This document shows positions 1,419-18,001 of a DNA stretch of 21,490 nucleotides, piece by piece. The stretch's first letter is position 1, and every line of letters starts with the position of its first letter. The DNA is from a virus (taxonomy: Duplodnaviria > Heunggongvirae > Uroviricota > Caudoviricetes). The notes under the pieces are model-generated. The model was not told where the DNA came from, ran no database searches, and worked only from the letters and a program-made list of their open reading frames with translations. The stretch lies in the IMG/VR virus record IMGVR_UViG_2711768030_000006. One strand, written 5' to 3'. The position numbers were made by a program, and so were the translations under genes.

Positions 1419-2423
1419 TTATTTGATTTCAATTTTGTCCCACTCCCTGCCTCTGTCATCACGATACTGTGATGCCATGGTGTCCGACTTATGCCCGAGA
1501 AGATGTTGAGCAAACTTATCGCTTATCTGCTTCTCATAGAGTCTTGCAGACAAACTGCGCAACTCGTGAAAGGTAGGCGGATCCCCTTCGAAGGAAAGAC
1601 CTGATGCTTTTCGTGCGCGCATAAAATACATCTCTTTGCATTTATCAAGTGTTTCCTTCATTGATATCCCGAGAGCATCAACATGCAATGCTGTTGGGAT
1701 GGCAATTTTTACGCCTGTTTTGCGTTGCTCGACATAAAGATATCCATCTACGATATCAGACCACTTCATTTCGCATAAATCACCAACTCGCTGCCCGGTA
1801 ACAACAGCCAGTTCCATTGCAAGTCTAAGCCAACATGGTGATGATTCTGCTGCTTGATAAATTTTCAGGTATTCGTCAGCCGTAAGTCTTGATCTCCTTA
1901 CCTCTGATTTTGCAGCGCGAGTGGCTGCGACCGGGTTTGTTGTTATATGGCCTTCAGCTATAGCCTCTCGGAATGCATCGCTCAGTGTTGATCTGATTAA
2001 CTTGGCTGATGCCGCCTTGCCCTCGTCTATGTATCCATTGAGCATTGCCGCAATTTCTTTTGTGGTGATGTCTTCAAGTGGAGCATCAGGCAGACCCCTC
2101 CTTATTGCTTTAATTTTGCTCATGTAATTTATGAGTGTCTTCTGCTTGATTCCTCTGCTGGCCAGGATTTTTTCGTAGCGATCAAGCCATGAATGTAACG
2201 TAACGGAATTATCACTGTTGATTCTCGCTGTCAGAGGCTTGTGTTTGTGTCCTGAAAATAACTCAATGTTGGCCTGTATAGCTTCAGTGATTGCGATTCG
2301 CCTGTCTCGGCCTAATCCAAACTCTTTACCCGTCCTTGGGTCCCTGTAGCAGTAATATCCATTGTTTCTTATATAAAGGTTAGGGGGTAAATCCCGGCGC
2401 TCATGACTTCGCCTTCTTCCCAT
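1419..2423 (-). CDS. int: Lambda-type tyrosine integrase, 334 aa (apparent 22-aa internal deletion versus 356-aa lambda Int)
   Basis: N-terminus MGRRRSHERRDLPPNLYIRNNGYYCYRDPRTGKEF and C-terminus LLGHKSDTMASQYRDDRGREWDKIEIK match lambda Int; junction KCKE-M-YFMRARK where lambda is remembered to have KCKE-ILGGETIIASTRREPLSSGTVSR-YFMRARK. Confidence 0.9.
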   Translation of the reverse strand: MGRRRSHERRDLPPNLYIRNNGYYCYRDPRTGKEFGLGRDRRIAITEAIQANIELFSGHKHKPLTARINSDNSVTLHSWLDRYEKILASRGIKQKTLINYMSKIKAIRRGLPDAPLEDITTKEIAAMLNGYIDEGKAASAKLIRSTLSDAFREAIAEGHITTNPVAATRAAKSEVRRSRLTADEYLKIYQAAESSPCWLRLAMELAVVTGQRVGDLCEMKWSDIVDGYLYVEQRKTGVKIAIPTALHVDALGISMKETLDKCKEMYFMRARKASGLSFEGDPPTFHELRSLSARLYEKQISDKFAQHLLGHKSDTMASQYRDDRGREWDKIEIK

Positions 2424-2619
2424 TTCTGATCCTCTTCAAAAGGCTACCTGTTACTGGTCGATTTAAGTCAACCTTTACCGCTGATTCGTGGAACAGATAC
2501 TCTCTTCCATCCTTAACCGGAGGAGGGAATATCCTGCACTCGCGTACCCATCGACGAACTGTTTCAAGGCTTCTTGGGCGTCGCTGGCGTGCGTTCCACT
2601 CCTGAAGTGTCAAGTACAT
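2401..2619 (-). CDS. xis: Excisionase Xis (72 aa)
   Basis: MYLTLQEWNARQRRPRSLETVRRWVRECRIFPPPVKDGREYLFHESAVKVDLNRP matches lambda Xis; overlaps int start by 23 nt as in lambda; GGAG Shine-Dalgarno upstream. Confidence 0.93.
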   Translation of the reverse strand: MYLTLQEWNARQRRPRSLETVRRWVRECRIFPPPVKDGREYLFHESAVKVDLNRPVTGSLLKRIRNGKKAKS

Positions 2620-2640
2620 CGCAAAGTCTCCGCAATTACA

Positions 2641-2666
2641 CGCAAGAAAAAACCGCCATCAGGCGG
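2641..2666 (-). terminator. Intrinsic terminator-like hairpin on minus strand between orf55 and xis
   Basis: Stem ccgcc (2653-2657) / ggcgg (2662-2666), 4-nt loop, followed on the minus strand by UUUUUUCUU (plus-strand A-run 2644-2652). Confidence 0.5.
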
Positions 2667-2826
2667 CTTGGTGTTCTTTCAGTTCTTCAATTCGAATATT
2701 GGTTACGTCTGCATGTGCTATCTGCGCCCACAGCATCCAGTGGTCATAGCAGTCGCTGATGTTCTCGGCTTCGATAACTCTGTTGAATGGTTCTCCATTC
2801 CATTCACCTGTGACTCGGAAGTGCAT
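2659..2826 (-). CDS. Lambda 55-aa hypothetical protein (orf55-like)
   Basis: 55-codon ORF (MHFRVTGEWNGEPFNRVIEAENISDCYDHWMLWAQIAHADVTNIRIEELKEHQAA) found by hand translation, not in the 60-aa-threshold ORF track; same spacing from xis as the 55-aa lambda ORF. Confidence 0.7.
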   Translation of the reverse strand: MHFRVTGEWNGEPFNRVIEAENISDCYDHWMLWAQIAHADVTNIRIEELKEHQAA

Positions 2827-2865
2827 TTATCATCTCCATAAAACAAAACCCGCCGTAGCGAGTTC

Positions 2866-2896
2866 AGATAAAAGAAATCCTCGTCAGTGCGAGGAT
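2866..2896 (-). terminator. Terminator-like hairpin on minus strand at left edge of the AT-rich island
   Basis: 7-bp stem atcctcg (2877-2883) / cgaggat (2890-2896), 6-nt loop, followed on the minus strand by UUUCUUUUAUCU. Confidence 0.35.
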
Positions 2897-3068
2897 GCTG
2901 TTCATTGCTGCTATACACTTTTTTGCTCTCAACGTAAGCGGTAGCCCATTCTGTTGGGTTGGTGCAGTTGCTTTTAGGAAATGCTATTTACCCCTTAAAT
3001 GTCGGCTGAAAGAGCTAAAATCCATGCAAAAAATTTACGCAATTTTGTGTATTATTGTGCAGTAAGTA

Positions 3069-3671
3069 ATGAGCTATTTTCTGCGCAAAAAATGGATGGT
3101 AAATTTGTCCGGGTCAGGAAAAATTTTATGGGCGCTAAACATGAAAAAAGATTCGTATCCTTATTTGATTTGCATGACAGTTTCAGGGCTGATCTTTATT
3201 TTCCTTTTCTTCTGGTGGCGGGCAGATATCTACAGGGTCACGTTTCTTAATCAGAGTATATCCCACTATTACATTCTGTTTAGCATGGGAATAGCTTTTC
3301 TGTTATCTCTGTTTTGGGTTAAGAAGGGGATAGTAAAACAAAGCGGCTGGAAGAGTCTGTCAGCATACCTTAAGGTTTATGCAGGGATGTGCATATTTGC
3401 TGGATTTTTTCTGATTATACCCCTTACGACACTAACTTATTTTTTGCCTGGAGAGACATCGTCTTATGTTGCACCGTATCGGTATACTTCCGGTAGTTCA
3501 AAAAGTTGTTCTGGAGCTGAGGTGGATGACCCCGATCTACATGAGAATATTCGCATTTGCTATCCGTATGGCAATTATGAGTACGATAATATTATCTATG
3601 TTGAAAAGAAAATTAATATATTAGGTGCGGTAGTGACATATGCACAGACCGCGCGTGATGATACTGAATGA
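3069..3671 (+). CDS. Hypothetical integral membrane protein (3 predicted TM helices plus about 70-aa Cys/Tyr-rich C-terminal domain); start uncertain (ATG at 3069, 3096 or 3141)
   Basis: 200-codon ORF in strongly AT-rich DNA (about 35% GC in sampled lines); hydrophobic segments LICMTVSGLIFIFLFFWW, YYILFSMGIAFLLSLFWV, VYAGMCIFAGFFLIIPLTTLTYFL; opposite strand to the surrounding pL operon; no recognisable lambda counterpart. Confidence 0.6.
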   Translation: MSYFLRKKWMVNLSGSGKILWALNMKKDSYPYLICMTVSGLIFIFLFFWWRADIYRVTFLNQSISHYYILFSMGIAFLLSLFWVKKGIVKQSGWKSLSAYLKVYAGMCIFAGFFLIIPLTTLTYFLPGETSSYVAPYRYTSGSSKSCSGAEVDDPDLHENIRICYPYGNYEYDNIIYVEKKINILGAVVTYAQTARDDTE

Positions 3672-3705
3672 TATAGTATATAGCGGGCAAGTTTTAGTTA
3701 ATTTA

Positions 3706-3729
3706 TCGAGGTAATATAATTTACCTCGA
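3706..3729 (+). terminator. Hairpin downstream of the membrane-protein gene (candidate terminator)
   Basis: Perfect 9-bp inverted repeat tcgaggtaa / ttacctcga with 6-nt loop, 35 nt after the stop, followed by moderately T-rich sequence. Confidence 0.35.
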
Positions 3730-3881
3730 CTCGTTTGTTCTGGTATTAATATTTCGCTTTACGACCGATTTTTATCTGATGATATCATGCGGTTTTCATA
3801 TACTGACTTACTGTCTTTTCTCCGTTAGCGATTTTCTCCTGCTCAGCGATGATTTTATCTTTGGCTTCTAGTTAATTTCGC

Positions 3882-4103
3882 TCACTTCGAACCTCTCTGT
3901 TTACTGATAAGCTCCAGATCTTGCTGGCAACTGGCACAAGTCCGACAACCCTGAACGGCCAGTCGTCTTCGTTCATCTATCGGATCGCCACACTCACAAC
4001 AATGAGTGGCAGATATAGCCTGGTGGTTCAGGCGGCGCATTTTTATTGCTGTGTTGCGCTGTAATTCTTCAATTTCTGATGCTGAATCAATTATGTCTGC
4101 CAT
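3882..4103 (-). CDS. TraR/DksA-family C4-type zinc-finger protein (73 aa; lambda Orf73-like)
   Basis: CxxC...CxxC motif (CCECGDPIDERRRLAVQGCRTCASC) and 73-aa length typical of the TraR family; sits in the pL operon. Confidence 0.75.
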   Translation of the reverse strand: MADIIDSASEIEELQRNTAIKMRRLNHQAISATHCCECGDPIDERRRLAVQGCRTCASCQQDLELISKQRGSK

Positions 4104-4163
4104 CTTTCATTAATCCCTGAATTGTTGGTTAATACGCTTGAGGGTGAATGCGAATAATAAAAA

Positions 4164-4178
4164 AGGAGCCTGTAGCTC
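4164..4178 (-). terminator. Weak terminator-like hairpin on minus strand
   Basis: 5-bp GC stem ggagc / gctcc with 5-nt loop followed on the minus strand by UUUUUUAUU. Confidence 0.25.
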
Positions 4179-4201
4179 CCTGATGATTTTACTTTTCATG
4201 T

Positions 4202-4417
4202 TCACCGTTCCTTAAAGACGCCGTTCAACATGCCGATCGCCAGGCTTAAATGAGTCGGTGTGAATCCCATCAGCGTTACCGTTTCGCGGTGCTTCTTTAG
4301 TACGCTACGGCAAATGTCATCGACGTTTTTATCCGGAAACTGCTGTCTGGCTTTTTTGATTTCAGAATTAGCCTGACGGGCAATGCTGCGAAGGGCGTTT
4401 TCTTGCTGAGGTGTCAT
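4202..4417 (-). CDS. Hypothetical small protein (71 aa from ATG 4417; in-frame ATG at 4483 would give 93 aa)
   Basis: ORF MTPQQENALRSIARQANSEIKKARQQFPDKNVDDICRSVLKK...; ATG at 4415-4417 overlaps the stop of the upstream micro-ORF (ATGA). Confidence 0.5.
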   Translation of the reverse strand: MTPQQENALRSIARQANSEIKKARQQFPDKNVDDICRSVLKKHRETVTLMGFTPTHLSLAIGMLNGVFKER

Positions 4418-4497
4418 TGAACAAGCCCCATGTCGGCAAGCATAAGCACACAGAATATGAAGCCCGCTGCCAGAAAAATGCATTCAGTGGTTGTCAT
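4414..4497 (-). CDS. Candidate 27-aa hydrophobic micro-ORF (MTTTECIFLAAGFIFCVLMLADMGLVQ)
   Basis: Start overlaps orf63 stop (ATGA at 4494-4497) and stop overlaps the next ATG (ATGA at 4414-4417); a single TM-like hydrophobic stretch. Confidence 0.3.
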   Translation of the reverse strand: MTTTECIFLAAGFIFCVLMLADMGLVQ

Positions 4498-4685
4498 ACC
4501 TGGTCTCTCTCATCTGCTTCTGCTTTCGCCACCATCATTTCCAGCTTTTGTGAAAGGGATGCGGCTAACGTATGAAATTCTTCGTCTGTTTCTACTGGTA
4601 TTGGCACAAACCTGACTCCAATTTGAGCGAGGCTATGTGCCATCTCGATACTCGTTCTTAACTCAACGGGAGATGCTTTGTGCAT
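4494..4685 (-). CDS. Lambda Orf63-like protein (63 aa)
   Basis: 63-aa ORF at the lambda-equivalent position, overlapping orf60a by 28 nt as in lambda. Confidence 0.8.
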   Translation of the reverse strand: MHKASPVELRTSIEMAHSLAQIGVRFVPIPVETDEEFHTLAASLSQKLEMMVAKAEADERDQV

Positions 4686-4840
4686 ACAGCTCCCCGTTTA
4701 TTATTTATCTCCTCAGCCAGCCGCTGTGCTTTCAGGGGATTTCTGATAACAGAAAGGCCGGGAAATACCCAGCCTCGCTTTGTAATGGAGTAGACGAAAG
4801 TGATCGCGCCTACCCGGATATTATCGTGAGGATGCGTCAT
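4658..4840 (-). CDS. Lambda Orf60a-like protein (60 aa)
   Basis: 60-aa ORF from an ATG that overlaps the exo stop (ATGA at 4837-4840). Confidence 0.75.
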
Positions 4841-5517
4841 CGCCATTGCTCCCCAAATACAAAACCAATTTCAGCCAGTGCCTCGTCCATTTTTTCGATG
4901 AACTCCGGCACCATCTCGTCAAAACTCGCCATGTAATTTTCATCCCGCTCAACCACGACATAATGCAGGCCTTCACGCTTCATTCGTGGGTCATAGTTGG
5001 CAAAGTACCAGGCATCTTTTCGCGTCACCCACATGCTGTACTGCACCTGGGCCATGTAAGCCGACTTTATGGCCTCGAAACCACCGAGCCGGAATTTCAT
5101 GAAATCCCGGGAGGTAAACGGGCATTTCAGTTCAAGGCCGTTACCGTCACTGCATAAACCATCGGGAGAGCAGGCGGTGCGCATACTTTCGTCGCGATAG
5201 ATGATCGGGGATTCAGTAACATTCACGCCGGAAGTAAACTCAAACAGGGCTCTGGCGTCGTTCTCGTACTGTTTTCCCCAGGCCAGCGCCTTAGCATTAA
5301 CTTCCGGAGCCACACCGGTGCAAACCTCAGCCAGCAGGGTGTGGAAGTAGGACATTTTCATGTCAGGCCACTTCTTTCCTGAGCGGGGCTTTGCTATCAC
5401 GTTGTGAACTTCTGAAGCGGTGATGACGCCGAGCCGTAATTTGTGCCATGCATCATCCCCCTGTTCGACAGCTCTCACGTCGATCCCGGTATGCTGCAGG
5501 ATAATGTCCGGTGTCAT
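4837..5517 (-). CDS. exo: Lambda exonuclease (Red-alpha), 226 aa
   Basis: Full-length match to lambda Exo ([50 protein letters not shown]...); ATGA overlap with bet. Confidence 0.95.
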
Positions 5518-6304: not shown

Positions 6305-6721
6305 TTATACCTCTGAATCAATATCAACCTGGTGGTGAGCAATGGTTTCAACCATGTACCGGATGTGTTCTGCCATGCGCTCCTGAAACCCAACATCGTC
6401 ATCAAACGCACGGGTAATGGCTTTTTTGCTGGCCCCGCAGCGTTGTAAATGATCGATGCAGAGCGATTCAAACAAATGCTGGGGCAGGCCTTTTTCCATG
6501 TCGTCTGCCAGTTCTGCCTCTTTCTCTTCACGGGCGATCTGCTGGTAGTGACGTGCCCAGCTCTGAGCCTCAAGACGATCCTGAATGTAATAAGCGTTCA
6601 TGGCTGAACTCCTGAAATAGCTATGAAAATATCGCCCGCGAAATGCCGGGCTGATTAGGAAAACAGGAAAGAGGGTTAGTGAATGCTTTTGCTTGATCTC
6701 AGTTTCAGTATTAATATCCAT
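6305..6721 (-). CDS. gam: Gam, RecBCD inhibitor, 138 aa
   Basis: Matches lambda Gam ([61 protein letters not shown]...). Confidence 0.93.
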
Positions 6722-6819
6722 TTTTTATAAGCGTCGACGGCCTCACGAAACATCTTTTCATCGCCAATAAAAGTGGCGATAGTGAATTTAGTCTGGATAG
6801 CCATAAGTGTTTGATCCAT
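6676..6819 (-). CDS. kil: Kil host-killing / FtsZ-inhibitor peptide, 47 aa
   Basis: [47 protein letters not shown]; overlaps the gam start as in lambda. Confidence 0.85.
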
Positions 6820-6952
6820 TTTTTGGGACTCCTGGCTGATTAAGTATGTCGATAAGGCGTTTCCATCCGTCACGTAATTTACGGGTGATTCGTTCAAGTA
6901 AAGATTCGGAAGGGCAGCCAGCAACAGGCCACCCTGCAATGGCATATTGCAT
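6788..6952 (-). CDS. cIII: cIII, FtsH inhibitor that stabilises cII, 54 aa
   Basis: [54 protein letters not shown]. Confidence 0.9.
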   Translation of the reverse strand: MQYAIAGWPVAGCPSESLLERITRKLRDGWKRLIDILNQPGVPKNGSNTYGYPD

Positions 6953-7024
6953 GGTGTGCTCCTTATTTATACATAACGAAAAACGCCTCGAGTGAAGCGT
7001 TATTGGTATGCGGTAAAACCGCAC

Positions 7025-7393
7025 TCAGGCGGCCTTGATAGTCATATCATCTGAATCAAATATTCCTGATGTATCGATATCGGTAATTCTTATTCCTTCG
7101 CTACCATCCATTGGAGGCCATCCTTCCTGACCATTTCCATCATTCCAGTCGAACTCGCACACAACACCATATGCATTTAAGTCGCTTGAAATTGCTATAA
7201 GCAGAGCATGTTGCGCCAGCATGATTAATACAGCATTTAATACAGAGCCGTGTTTATTGAGTCGGTATTCAGAGTCTGACCAGAAATTATTAATCTGGTG
7301 AAGTTTTTCCTCTGTCATTACGTCATGATCGATTTCAATTTCTATTGATGCTTTCCAGTCGTAATCAATGATGTATTTTTTGATGTTTGACAT
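7025..7393 (-). CDS. ea10: Ea10 protein, 122 aa
   Basis: 122-aa ORF at the lambda-equivalent position downstream of cIII. Confidence 0.8.
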   Translation of the reverse strand: MSNIKKYIIDYDWKASIEIEIDHDVMTEEKLHQINNFWSDSEYRLNKHGSVLNAVLIMLAQHALLIAISSDLNAYGVVCEFDWNDGNGQEGWPPMDGSEGIRITDIDTSGIFDSDDMTIKAA

Positions 7394-7846: not shown

Positions 7847-7973
7847 GTATCACCTTAAATAGTGGATTGCGGTAGTAAAGATTGTGCCTGTCTTTTAACC
7901 ACATCAGGCTCGGTGGTTCTCGTGTACCCCTACAGCGAGAAATCGGATAAACTATTACAACCCCTACAGTTTG

Positions 7974-8525
7974 ATGAGTATAGAAATGGATCCACTCGTT
8001 ATTCTCGGACGAGTGTTCAGTAATGAACCTCTGGAGAGAACCATGTATATGATCGTTATCTGGGTTGGACTTCTGCTTTTAAGCCCAGATAACTGGCCTG
8101 AATATGTTAATGAGAGAATCGGTATTCCTCATGTGTGGCATGTTTTCGTCTTTGCTCTTGCATTTTCGCTAGCAATTAATGTGCATCGATTATCAGCTAT
8201 TGCCAGCGCCAGATATAAGCGATTTAAGCTAAGAAAACGCATTAAGATGCAAAACGATAAAGTGCGATCAGTAATTCAAAACCTTACAGAAGAGCAATCT
8301 ATGGTTTTGTGCGCAGCCCTTAATGAAGGCAGGAAGTATGTGGTTACATCAAAACAATTCCCATACATTAGTGAGTTGATTGAGCTTGGTGTGTTGAACA
8401 AAACTTTTTCCCGATGGAACGGGAAGCATATATTATTCCCTATTGAGGATATTTACTGGACTGAATTAGTTGCCAGCTATGATCCATATAATATTGAGAT
8501 AAAGCCAAGGCCAATATCTAAGTAA
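7974..8525 (+). CDS. sieB: SieB superinfection-exclusion protein B (membrane protein); ATG at 7974, possible TTG at 7971
   Basis: ORF with hydrophobic N-terminal half (MYMIVIWVGLLLLS..., HVFVFALAFSLAI) at the lambda sieB position, converging on N. Confidence 0.8.
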   Translation: MSIEMDPLVILGRVFSNEPLERTMYMIVIWVGLLLLSPDNWPEYVNERIGIPHVWHVFVFALAFSLAINVHRLSAIASARYKRFKLRKRIKMQNDKVRSVIQNLTEEQSMVLCAALNEGRKYVVTSKQFPYISELIELGVLNKTFSRWNGKHILFPIEDIYWTELVASYDPYNIEIKPRPISK

Positions 8526-15241: not shown

Positions 15242-15766
15242 TTATTGTTTAACCCATAATAATTCATTGACATTGAATCCCAACTTTTGAGCGGTTCGCA
15301 CATAGTCTGCTTTTACTTTATCTGGAATAGTTGGGGTCCTTGCCAGAATCCATAGGTATTCTCTGTTCGGACCACTGACAAGAGCATACTTATACTCATC
15401 ATCCAGTTTGATTACATTATAGCCACCATAGAAGGGGCCAAAAAACGAAACCTTCAATGCTGCAGTTTTAGTATCTCCAGTAAAGTATGCTTTACCTTCG
15501 CTCTCGCTCCATTTATTTTTCGTTGGATCGTATCCACGGTTAAGTACACGAATCCCTCCGTCGTTCCGTTTTCCATAAGTAGCGCTGACCTGTTCCAGAC
15601 CACGTTCGAACCGGTTCTCGAGGCGAGCTATTTCATACCATTTTCCGAGGTAGCGGTTGGCGTCAAAATTTGTAATCGGCTGCACACCTTTAGGTGGTGT
15701 CGGGGCCTTACATGCTATAAGAGTGAAAGAGAGTGCAATGCCAGTCAACACAGGCCATAACTTCAT
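15242..15766 (-). CDS. Blc-like bacterial lipocalin, outer-membrane lipoprotein, 174 aa
   Basis: Lipoprotein signal with LIAC lipobox; lipocalin motifs NFDANRYLGKWYEIARLENRFERG and FTGDTKTAALKVSFFGPFYGGYNVIKLD closely resemble E. coli Blc; AGGA Shine-Dalgarno. Confidence 0.85.
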   Translation of the reverse strand: MKLWPVLTGIALSFTLIACKAPTPPKGVQPITNFDANRYLGKWYEIARLENRFERGLEQVSATYGKRNDGGIRVLNRGYDPTKNKWSESEGKAYFTGDTKTAALKVSFFGPFYGGYNVIKLDDEYKYALVSGPNREYLWILARTPTIPDKVKADYVRTAQKLGFNVNELLWVKQ

Positions 15767-15958
15767 AATAAATCCTGTACTTTTGATAGTTGAGAGTAAG
15801 TATGAAAGATAGATGATTACGACCGATCACTTAAAGAACTTTCATACTATATTAGGAATAGTCCATAACAGAAAAATTGTCAGTGATGACGCCAGAAAGG
15901 CAATTTATTCCGTGCACTACACAGTTTATGTGTTAATGAATTAGTCAAGGGGGAGAAT

Positions 15959-16918
15959 ATGATAAAAAAACCTGTGATTGGAATCAGCGGTTGTTTGGCC
16001 GGTTCTGCTGTTCGTTTTGATGGTGGTCACAAAAGAGCTGACTTTTTAATGGACAAATTAGTGGAATGGGTAACATTCAGACCAGTATGTCCGGAAATGG
16101 CTATAGGGCTGCCAGTTCCGCGTCCTGCTCTACGTCTTGTGCGCTCGACGCAAGGAAATATACGGATGTGTTTCAGCCACGACCAGAATGAGGATGTGAC
16201 AGAGAGAATGACAGAGTTTAGTCGTTCTTATATGGACAAATTAAAGGATGTATCGGGGTTTGTGGTTTGTGCTAAATCTCCCAGCTGTGGCATGGAGCGC
16301 GTGCGTGTCTATGATGAAAATGGTAATCGAGGTCGTAAAGATGGAGTGGGACTATTTACGAGCACTTTGATGGAAAAGTTTTCCTGGCTACCGGTTGAAG
16401 AGGATGGGCGATTACATGATCCAGTGCTTCGTGAGAATTTTGTTGAAAGAGTTTTTGCTTTGCATGAGCTCAATCACCTTTACAAGGAGAAATTATCAAG
16501 AAGAGAGTTATTAGCTTTTCATAGTCGTTATAAGCTTCAGTTGTTGGCGCATAGTCAGGCAGGCTATAAAGATATGGGACCATTTGTGGCTGCAATACAC
16601 GAGTGGGCGGACCTTGAATCATACTTTGAGGTGTATCGTGATAAGCTGATGGCGATTCTCAGAAAACCTGCATCACGTAAAAATCACACGAATGTGCTGA
16701 TGCATATACAGGGGTATTTTAGTAACTACTTAAGTACACGCCAGCGTAAAGAGTTGAGCGAGGTTATACTTAACTATCGTTCTGGCACATTACCTCTTCT
16801 TGCGCCGTTGACTCTGCTGAAGCATTATCTGGGTGAGTATCCTAATGATTACTTGCTTACACAGAATTACTTCGATCCCTATCCGGACGAACTGGCTCTA
16901 AGACTGATGGTAAATTAA
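15959..16918 (+). CDS. DUF523 (TudS-like, cysteine-rich putative Fe-S) fused to DUF1722 (YbgA-like) protein, 319 aa
   Basis: N-terminal half has Cys spacing GISGCLAG...PVCPE...CAKSPSCG typical of DUF523; C-terminal half resembles YbgA-type DUF1722; GGGGGAG Shine-Dalgarno. Confidence 0.7.
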   Translation: MIKKPVIGISGCLAGSAVRFDGGHKRADFLMDKLVEWVTFRPVCPEMAIGLPVPRPALRLVRSTQGNIRMCFSHDQNEDVTERMTEFSRSYMDKLKDVSGFVVCAKSPSCGMERVRVYDENGNRGRKDGVGLFTSTLMEKFSWLPVEEDGRLHDPVLRENFVERVFALHELNHLYKEKLSRRELLAFHSRYKLQLLAHSQAGYKDMGPFVAAIHEWADLESYFEVYRDKLMAILRKPASRKNHTNVLMHIQGYFSNYLSTRQRKELSEVILNYRSGTLPLLAPLTLLKHYLGEYPNDYLLTQNYFDPYPDELALRLMVN

Positions 16919-17269
16919 TTGTATGCGATATCATCCAAAAGGATGAGTTCCTGCATGCAGGATATTTACAATCGTAAAAACTACACTATGATACCCAGAG
17001 TGTCAGTTTGTATAAAAACTCTGTTTACGCTGAAGAAACAATTGAGATGCAACTTAAAGTTGGTAAACATGCCAGTCAAAATATATAATATTATGATTCC
17101 ACGCAGCTATATATAATATAACGGATTGGTTTAATAATTTGTCTTTGTGAGTTAAATACATAATTTTATACTTGTGATGCAATGAAATTTTCCTTATTGT
17201 TGAACTGGCGAATATTGATTTTCCACCTATACTTACCTGGTGTAACCCCAATGATATCAGGTGGATAAT

Positions 17270-18001
17270 ATGCCATACATATGTTCTATCATTTTGGTGT
17301 TGAACTCGTTTGATGTCCGAATTGGTAAAGAAGATATTTTGTTTAAAAAAGGAAGTGCTGTTCTCATTGATTACAATTTAAAAGATTTTTTTTCATCAAA
17401 TATAGATCATGTAATGATCGTAGATGTTGAAGAGAAAACAGTTAATGATTTCTTTAAAAGCAACACACTCTCACCTTTTTCTGTAAGAAGGTTTTATCCG
17501 GCATACTTGATGGTGGAATGTGAAGATTTTTCATTGTTAAAGAACTTGATTGCATGCTTGAATTGTGATGGCAGAACTGTGGATTTTGTTAGAAATCAAA
17601 TATCACTTGCATGTCTTGCTATCTTATCTTCAGAGAAAATAGTGCAAAGTTTTTTATTTGGATGTCTTAATAGTTTAGGAAGTAAAGTTAAGGCTATTAT
17701 TCACACGGATATATCTGCAGCATGGAGACTTTGTGATATATCTTCAAGACTGTATCTGAGTGAAAGTCTGTTAAAAAGAAAATTAAAGCACGAAGGCTTA
17801 TCATTTAGTAAGTTAATTCTTGAAGAGCGAATGGTGATGGCGGAAAGGTTATTAAGCTACAATTTATATTCTGTTGGAAAAGTTGCTGAGATATGCGGTT
17901 ATGAAAACACGTCATATTTTGTAAGTGTTTTCAGAAGGTATTTTGGTGTTCCTCCCCATCAATATTCATCAAGATTTTTTTTAGAAAAAGACATGATGTA
18001 A
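17270..18001 (+). CDS. AraC/XylS-family transcriptional regulator (AppY/GadX/Rns-like), 243 aa from ATG 17270 (GTG at 17261 also possible)
   Basis: C-terminal double HTH (WRLCDISSRLYLSESLLKRKLKHEGLSFSKLILEERMVMAERLL...VGKVAEICGYENTSYFVSVFRRYFGVPP); AGGTGG Shine-Dalgarno 5 nt upstream; very AT-rich gene and leader. Confidence 0.85.
   Translation: MPYICSIILVLNSFDVRIGKEDILFKKGSAVLIDYNLKDFFSSNIDHVMIVDVEEKTVNDFFKSNTLSPFSVRRFYPAYLMVECEDFSLLKNLIACLNCDGRTVDFVRNQISLACLAILSSEKIVQSFLFGCLNSLGSKVKAIIHTDISAAWRLCDISSRLYLSESLLKRKLKHEGLSFSKLILEERMVMAERLLSYNLYSVGKVAEICGYENTSYFVSVFRRYFGVPPHQYSSRFFLEKDMM

Follow-up and report, generated by a model that had tools for sequence, protein, structure and literature searches.

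The window analyzed here (the whole stretch of 21,490 nucleotides of the virus record IMGVR_UViG_2711768030_000006) is the left arm of a lambda-like prophage, and between its orf55 gene and a gene for a TraR/DksA-type zinc-finger protein it carries an AT-rich island (2897-3869) in the place of the ea8.5 and ea22 genes of lambda. This island appears to be a single-gene moron: a mobile cassette with a putative extended -10 promoter and a terminator-like hairpin of its own, which would have moved between P2-like and lambdoid prophages and would here have displaced ea8.5 and ea22. Its gene encodes a protein of 176 amino acids (aa), predicted to lie in the inner membrane with three transmembrane (TM) helices in an N-in/C-out topology and to position a small conserved barrel, which a disulfide probably holds together, against the membrane on its periplasmic side. 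We infer, with a probability of about 40%, that this protein is a phage-exclusion factor expressed from the prophage and acting at the periplasmic face of the inner membrane, where it would interfere with the entry of the genomes of superinfecting phages across this membrane in the manner of P22 SieA or HK97 gp15, and would do so without a partner protein. This reading fits best since the cassette consists of one gene without a partner, with a probably constitutive promoter, since the protein has a conserved near-membrane domain predicted to be periplasmic, and since the gene recurs in accessory hotspots of two phage types. An earlier note, made from the letters of the window, had pointed to superinfection exclusion or abortive infection, and its interpretation as a whole is partly supported.

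The cassette, its gene and its signals

The island and its elements were placed as follows.

2897-3869, no strand: replaced segment (the island proper), 973 bp, AT-rich, taking the place of lambda ea8.5 and ea22
3004-3761, plus strand: mobile cassette (promoter, coding sequence, and terminator region), with 76% nucleotide identity over 761 nucleotides (nt) to an E. coli P2-like locus (L022)
3077-3105, plus strand: predicted sigma-70 promoter, with a weak -35 element TTTTCT (3077-3082), a 17-nt spacer, and an extended -10 element TGgTAAATT (3097-3105)
3141-3671, plus strand: coding sequence of the membrane protein, stop included, 176 aa, start codon ATG at 3141
3706-3739, plus strand: hairpin with a T-rich tail, CTCGTTTGTT, 9-bp stem and 6-nt loop (hairpin proper 3706-3729)
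2896-2877 and 2865-2846, minus strand: two tandem terminator-like hairpins of the pL operon, which belong to the phage backbone and not to the cassette, annotated as t-L4 in the phage 434 record M60848

The gap of about 1 kb of AT-rich DNA without a minus-strand open reading frame (ORF) described in the earlier note was found again: orf55 and the TraR/DksA-type gene lie 1055 bp apart, the GC content is 0.34-0.41 inside the gap vs. 0.47-0.53 in the flanks, and there is no credible ORF on the minus strand, none exceeding 34 aa save one alternative-frame ORF that overlaps orf55. The identity with lambda is 96% over positions 2600-2896 and 97% over positions 3870-4500, with no lambda match in between, and the island is therefore an exact substitution for ea8.5 plus ea22 minus the first 15 nt of the latter, in agreement with the proposal that the ea8.5/ea22 slot had been replaced. 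It carries a single plus-strand gene inside the minus-strand pL operon. Two features of a moron are thus present, namely the replacement of DNA lying between stretches shared with lambda and a base composition unlike that of the flanks, while the signals of its own that a moron carries are represented, at the sequence level, by the conserved extended -10 element and by the plus-strand hairpin, with a weak -35 element and a weak T-tract.

The plus-strand ORF extends from 3069 to 3671 (200 aa), and this is how it is usually annotated in RefSeq and GenBank. However, the methionine at position 25 of this ORF is invariant and corresponds to the first residue of the homologs (169-180 aa) from Salmonella, Klebsiella, Enterobacter, Cedecea, and other genera. 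At all 16 other loci, an in-frame stop occurs 1-18 codons upstream of the aligned ATG, so that none of them can encode the 24-residue extension; an upstream in-frame start is lacking at 14 of these loci, and at the remaining two it lies only 2-7 codons upstream. Since, in addition, the promoter element falls inside the supposed N-terminal extension, the 176-aa product of 3141-3671 is taken to be the real protein and the 200-aa version is rejected. The range of 175-200 aa given previously can accordingly be narrowed to its lower part.

An alignment of seven loci showed a TG-n-T-A---T motif which is invariant where the flanks otherwise diverge. In 9 of the 11 loci, including every phage-borne one except that of Klebsiella, the ATG is preceded at a distance of 44-48 nt by the sequence TGnTAA(A/G/T)TT. 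This extended -10 promoter had been missed by a generic promoter scan because its -35 element is weak. Transcription would start near 3112, and the promoter is probably constitutive. The presence of a conserved promoter-like element and of a hairpin downstream makes expression from the repressed prophage plausible.

The gene had been described as bracketed by two hairpins. All of the hairpins exist and fold better than shuffled sequence: those on the minus strand have free energies of -9.5 kcal/mol (2877-2896, z -2.9) and -11.0 kcal/mol (2846-2865, z -3.4), and that on the plus strand (3706-3729) one of -12.9 kcal/mol (z -3.5). The terminator scan returned 8 sites vs. 1.2 expected. The bracketing holds for the right side, where the plus-strand hairpin, in spite of its weak T-tract, is probably the terminator of the cassette. 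It does not hold for the left side, where the hairpin is lambda backbone (96% identical), its sequence being common to lambda and many Stx phages. No RNA family was detected by an Rfam search of positions 2600-4200. The idea of a self-contained cassette nevertheless stands, given the foreign GC content, the exact replacement of the slot, the flanking DNA that travels with the gene, and the transcription directed against pL.

Two further items of the island have been annotated in other records. For a plus-strand ORF of 56 aa (2895-3065), the 434 record gives "putative membrane protein" and the mEp332 record "hypothetical protein." This ORF is unlikely to be a gene because its start falls within the t-L4 hairpin, most of it is not part of the DNA that the P2-like loci have in common with the window, and it has no family match. 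The sequence TTGTGTATTATTGT at 3045-3058 fits the CII-binding consensus TTGY-N6-TTGY and is so annotated in the 434 record OL657226. It is retained in one Salmonella P2-like locus (L005) and deleted in another (L004), and since it also lies too far upstream of the predicted -10 element, it is probably a chance match.

Predicted architecture and conservation of the protein

3159-3221, plus strand: first TM helix by hydropathy (residues 7-27)
3264-3323, plus strand: second TM helix by hydropathy (residues 42-61)
3375-3446, plus strand: third TM helix by hydropathy (residues 79-102)
3447-3650, plus strand: C-terminal domain (residues 103-170), a five-stranded OB-like beta-barrel, periplasmic by prediction

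The three hydrophobic helices noticed previously were recovered both by hydropathy analysis (Kyte-Doolittle means of 1.6-2.1 over 19 residues) and by AlphaFold, which placed helices at residues 5-29, 38-61, and 70-101. The mean pLDDT amounted to 87 for the whole protein and to 90.7 for the C-terminal domain modeled alone. The description of the C-terminal part as rich in cysteine and tyrosine was also borne out, as its 74 residues include 9 Tyr and 2 Cys. The two cysteines, Cys123 (3507-3509) and Cys140 (3558-3560), show no or almost no variation and lie on either side of the beta2-beta3 hairpin, and they are likely to form a disulfide.

The charge and conservation statistics were drawn from 46 non-redundant members of the family. 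The N-terminus and loop 2 are positively charged, with a mean of 3.8 K+R vs. 0.7 D+E in loop 2, and the positive-inside rule holds across the family, which leads to the prediction of an N-in/C-out topology in which loop 1 is periplasmic and the Lys-rich loop 2 cytoplasmic. The C-terminal domain is near charge balance in the family (6.9 K+R vs. 6.5 D+E), while the copy in the window is net acidic (6 K+R vs. 11 D+E). The most conserved parts are the C-terminal domain and the IYRVTFL motif of loop 1, and the cytoplasmic loop is variable, which suggests that the working face of the protein is the periplasmic one. Judging from the aligned sequences, the domain assigned to the periplasm is under strong purifying selection.

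No match to the protein was found in Pfam or NCBIfam, nor did any family of PADLOC-DB v2.0.0 (5027 models) match at E values up to 1; the PD-T4, PD-lambda, and PD-T7 systems are covered by these models. Among PDB sequences, a profile search gave nothing below E 0.4, Foldseek gave no match at E 0.001 or better among viral models, and no convincing structural relative emerged from the structure searches run, OB-fold and DUF1093-like small barrels being the candidates considered for the C-terminal domain. The sole PHROG match was to PHROG 1416, the annotation of which names no function: the C-terminal 88 residues align with the 90-position profile (E 7e-51). This profile spans only the third helix and the barrel, and evidently derives from truncated or split gene calls.

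The lack of any Pfam, NCBIfam, or PADLOC family, together with an annotated start codon that has no good ribosome-binding site, is what might be expected of a chance ORF in an AT-rich spacer, that is, of no functional gene at all. This explanation deserves practically no credence: homologs at 36-78% identity are alike in length, have the three helices and both cysteines, and share many invariant residues, and the structure models are confident. The conservation data exclude it.

Genomic contexts and candidate functions

A 1051-bp stretch including the gene is 98.9-99.9% identical in the lambdoid phages mEp332, 2B8, and 434, so that the comparison of the island with other phages suggested in the earlier note gave a positive result; the records of these phages label the gene "hypothetical" or "putative membrane protein." The stretch is present at a coverage of at least 80% in 905 of the 5426 complete E. 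coli genomes (17%). The family is nevertheless small, with 57 representatives at 50% identity among 1.84 billion, all having the same architecture, and it is limited to the Enterobacterales, with identities ranging from 36 to 100%. Its members occur in three contexts: the lambdoid exo-xis slot, P2-like prophages, and solitary chromosomal genes. The form in the lambdoid slot is that of E. coli and of phages 434, mEp332, and 2B8. In the P2-like prophages, the copies always fall within the interval from the portal gene Q to the replication gene A (gpA-gpQ), as seen in five independent homologs.

P0039: E. coli, P2-like gpA-gpQ, 78% identity
P0043: Salmonella, P2-like gpA-gpQ, 71% identity
P0048: Salmonella, P2-like gpA-gpQ, 59% identity
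P0051: Enterobacter hormaechei, P2-like gpA-gpQ, 57% identity
P0054: Klebsiella michiganensis, P2-like gpA-gpQ, 55% identity

The similarity of positions 3004-3761 to the E. coli P2-like locus indicates that a single module, made up of the promoter, the gene, and the terminator region, was transferred between phages of two unrelated types. At the Salmonella P2-like loci, the nucleotide identity is about 71% over 603-641 nt, beginning 96-133 nt before the ATG.

In P2-like phages, the gpA-gpQ locus houses old and tin, and experiments have identified it as a reservoir of antiviral systems (Rousset et al., 2022, PMC9122126), a status confirmed by later work (PMC13586616). Table S5B of the former study lists a single-gene system #4, described as "3 TM," having no Pfam match and 470 occurrences, which make it the fourth most frequent cargo of the hotspot (PMC9122126). 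The protein of system #4 is 52% identical to that of the window over 168 residues (E 5e-57) and belongs to the same family, being encoded by a single gene and having three TM helices; closer homologs of the window protein (55-78%) are found at the same gpA-gpQ locus. The statement that the protein belongs to no recognized family is thus correct as regards Pfam, NCBIfam, and PADLOC but not as regards this catalog. The two copies differ in their setting, as that of the window lies in the ea8.5/ea22 slot of a lambdoid prophage and system #4 in the P2-like gpA-gpQ locus, where it has been catalogued only. No later functional study of the family was found in the literature on mEp332, on the exo-xis region of 434, or on the membrane proteins of the P2 hotspot. 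The presence of homologs in the gpA-gpQ hotspot lends indirect support to the exclusion or abortive-infection idea put forward in the earlier note.

At the hotspot of Klebsiella michiganensis (L013-L015, 2281-5623), the homolog adjoins genes on the opposite strand for a 790-aa AAA_16 (STAND-like) protein and a 279-aa protein without a Pfam match. This pair looks like a separate candidate defense system.

Residence in a defense hotspot would also suit an abortive-infection effector, the periplasmic domain of which would sense a perturbation of the envelope, whereupon the inner membrane would be depolarized or permeabilized and the infected cell killed. The TM proteins of known systems are usually regarded as suicide effectors (Rousset et al., 2022, PMC9122126), and the lambda proteins RexB and SieB provide a precedent of membrane proteins expressed from a prophage. 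However, no sensor or partner gene occurs in any of the contexts, three helices and a compact barrel form no obvious pore, there is no similarity to RexB or SieB (hhalign probability below 0.2%), and both the likely constitutive promoter and the occurrence in 17% of the complete E. coli genomes speak against toxicity. We therefore consider this mode of action improbable.

Solitary chromosomal copies, with no phage genes nearby, were found in Enterobacter, Klebsiella sp., Cedecea, Pseudescherichia, Pantoea, Erwinia, Serratia, Citrobacter, Phytobacter, and Kosakonia. In Enterobacter, synteny extends to at least six species, the gene having GGDEF and AI-2E-transporter genes as neighbors. The search for a conserved partner gene at the chromosomal loci was negative, no neighbor being kept between genera: the adjacent gene encodes a GNAT acetyltransferase in Serratia and an unrelated 195-aa protein in both Pantoea and Erwinia, and there are different neighbors elsewhere. 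Nor was any partner gene conserved across all the contexts, lambdoid, P2-like, and chromosomal, which points to the action of a single gene.

Two of the loci call for separate mention. In Cedecea neteri (L020), the homolog is followed by an ORF (6631-7251) resembling the C-terminal part of a lambda-type integrase, which suggests that some of the "chromosomal" copies may be remnants of decayed prophages. A 3561-bp contig assigned to a "Candidatus Nanosynbacter" metagenome bin (L026, JARKOR010000073.1) carries the gene at 99% identity with a lambda-type exo and a TraR gene at 97%, and is almost certainly a mis-binned fragment of an E. coli prophage.

The chromosomal copies raise the question of whether the protein is a host-type envelope protein with a role outside conflict, such as stress tolerance or the modulation of a membrane complex, which phages carry as ordinary lysogenic-conversion cargo. 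The fixed locus of the chromosomal clade in several Enterobacter species, the non-phage copies in Klebsiella, Cedecea, Pantoea, Erwinia, Serratia, Phytobacter, and Kosakonia, and the strong purifying selection on the periplasmic domain all agree with such a role. On the other hand, the neighbors change from one genus to another, so that there is no conserved operon or pathway, the integrase fragment following the Cedecea copy suggests the decay of a prophage rather than a native gene, and the phage-borne clade is found again and again at accessory hotspots, in two types of phage that are unrelated to each other. This explanation seems to us possible although on the unlikely side.

The protein might also be an orphan immunity protein, carried by phages to the benefit of the lysogen and directed against toxins that act in the periplasm or at the membrane (colicin M-type or pore-forming bacteriocins, type VI or contact-dependent effectors). 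Periplasmic immunity proteins share the same general build, consisting of an inner-membrane anchor and a periplasmic domain; the protein studied here has such an anchor by prediction, its conserved domain, assigned to the periplasm, probably depends on a disulfide, and its solitary chromosomal copies are free of phage genes and syntenic in Enterobacter. We hold this possibility to be improbable as well.

To return to exclusion at the inner membrane, the nearest functional analog, though not a relative, would be the SieA protein of P22, a 3-TM inner-membrane protein of 162-164 aa that alone suffices to block DNA injection (PMC10883804). In both cases, a single protein of about 160-176 aa with three predicted TM helices would be expressed from the prophage under its own promoter, without any partner, the inner-membrane location of the window protein being predicted. 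The two differ in that no homology can be detected between them (hhalign probability 0.1%), that the FxRYPxEAxxFNK motif of SieA (predicted to be cytoplasmic) is absent from the window protein, of which the conserved part is the barrel (predicted to be periplasmic), and that the sieA genes lie between genes 16 and 9 of P22-like phages, unlike the cassette. HK97 gp15 is likewise the membrane-protein product of a moron having its own terminator among unrelated genes, but it is only 62 aa long, its gene belongs to the tail-gene cluster, and there is no homology (hhalign probability 0.7%). It reportedly blocks genome entry (work of Cumby et al. in 2012).

The lambda genes sieB and rexB are also exclusion genes for membrane-associated proteins expressed from the prophage, and sieB, like the cassette, is set in the pL operon in the opposite orientation. 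SieB and RexB act by abortive infection from the cytoplasmic side. The window protein shows an hhalign probability of 0.08% with SieB, with no PF14163 match at E values up to 1, and of 0.17% with RexB. Homology to P22 SieA, lambda SieB, lambda RexB, and HK97 gp15 was rejected. The 434 Hex protein was discarded as a possible identity, its gene being located in the immunity region, where it overlaps that of the repressor (PMC3564112).

Several observations weigh against the proposed exclusion function. The Shine-Dalgarno sequence of the window allele is weak, whereas GAGG or CAGG is present at the same position in other genera. No sequence or fold link was found with the known exclusion proteins compared, nor any with the PADLOC families. 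A highly conserved periplasmic domain is unlike the usual recognition surface in an arms race. The members of the chromosomal clade, at 36-47% identity, occupy a fixed non-phage locus in Enterobacter and other non-phage loci elsewhere, which fits a host envelope function later captured by phages; and since the non-phage copies are syntenic across Enterobacter species, defense is not the sole possible role. The P2 hotspot also holds cargo unrelated to defense, system #1 being a StbA/ParM partition pair (PMC9122126), and the sequence of system #4 is absent from the tables of validated and additionally tested systems in the same study (Table S2). Lastly, the family was not reported in the E. coli pangenome selection of Vassallo et al., which is weak evidence: completely protecting clones were discarded there as presumed adsorption defects, and a strong exclusion protein could have been lost from the screen for this reason.

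The surrounding prophage and the significance of the cassette

The other genes placed in the left arm of the prophage are the following.

1419-2423, minus strand: int, 334 aa
2401-2619, minus strand: xis
2659-2826, minus strand: orf55, PHROG 676
3882-4103, minus strand: TraR/DksA-type zinc-finger gene, PF01258, E 5e-9
4202-4483, minus strand: gene for a 93-aa protein
between the 93-aa gene and exo in the gene list, minus strand: orf63 (DUF1382) and orf60a (DUF1317)
4837-5517, minus strand: exo
7971-8525, plus strand: sieB homolog, PF14163, E 1e-29

Like sieB, the N gene and an S24/HTH repressor gene are located to the right of exo. As in lambda, the sieB homolog lies within the pL operon and is oriented against it, and this one prophage therefore has two plus-strand genes for membrane proteins set against pL, sieB and the gene of the cassette, a parallel that speaks in favor of the exclusion reading. 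The zinc-finger gene at 3882-4103 has its counterpart at 30392-30613 of the lambda genome (NC_001416), where the DNA is 97% identical and where the record has no annotated gene between ea22 and orf61.

The integrase encoded at 1419-2423 on the minus strand lacks 22 residues in frame, ILGGETIIASTRREPLSSGTVSR (residues 265-287 of the 434 Int), and is 99% identical to the Int of phage 434 in the rest of its length. Since the deletion falls in the catalytic domain, the prophage may be unable to excise. A minus-strand ORF of 427 aa (1-1284) reaches the edge of the window; its GC content is host-like (0.52-0.57), the composition shifts near 1300, and it is presumably a bacterial gene beside the attachment site. 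Positions 15242-18001 carry unusual cargo, namely a Blc-like lipocalin (minus strand), a 2-thiouracil desulfurase/DUF1722 protein, and an AraC-family regulator, the genes of which look like host-type rather than phage genes.

A membrane protein encoded by a moron is of a known kind and would not surprise a specialist, although its fold is undescribed. The gene is nonetheless common and has long been in plain sight, in phage 434, in the 905 E. coli genomes mentioned above, and as the fourth commonest cargo of the P2 hotspot, and it provides a documented example of a single accessory cassette moving between two unrelated temperate phage types. If the protein does exclude phages, it would add a new fold to the short list of genome-entry blockers and would bear on the reading of host-range and phage-therapy data in E. 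coli and Shigella. A bolder proposal, which we regard as a long shot, is that it represents a new type of envelope-level immunity, in which a barrel of host origin on the periplasmic face blocks or senses the penetration of the membrane by contractile-tailed and long-tailed phages alike. Such breadth, if true, would explain why the cassette is retained in both P2-like and lambdoid prophages and why the gene persists alone after the decay of the prophage, and phage 434 and about one-sixth of the complete E. coli genomes would then carry an undescribed mechanism of broad exclusion.

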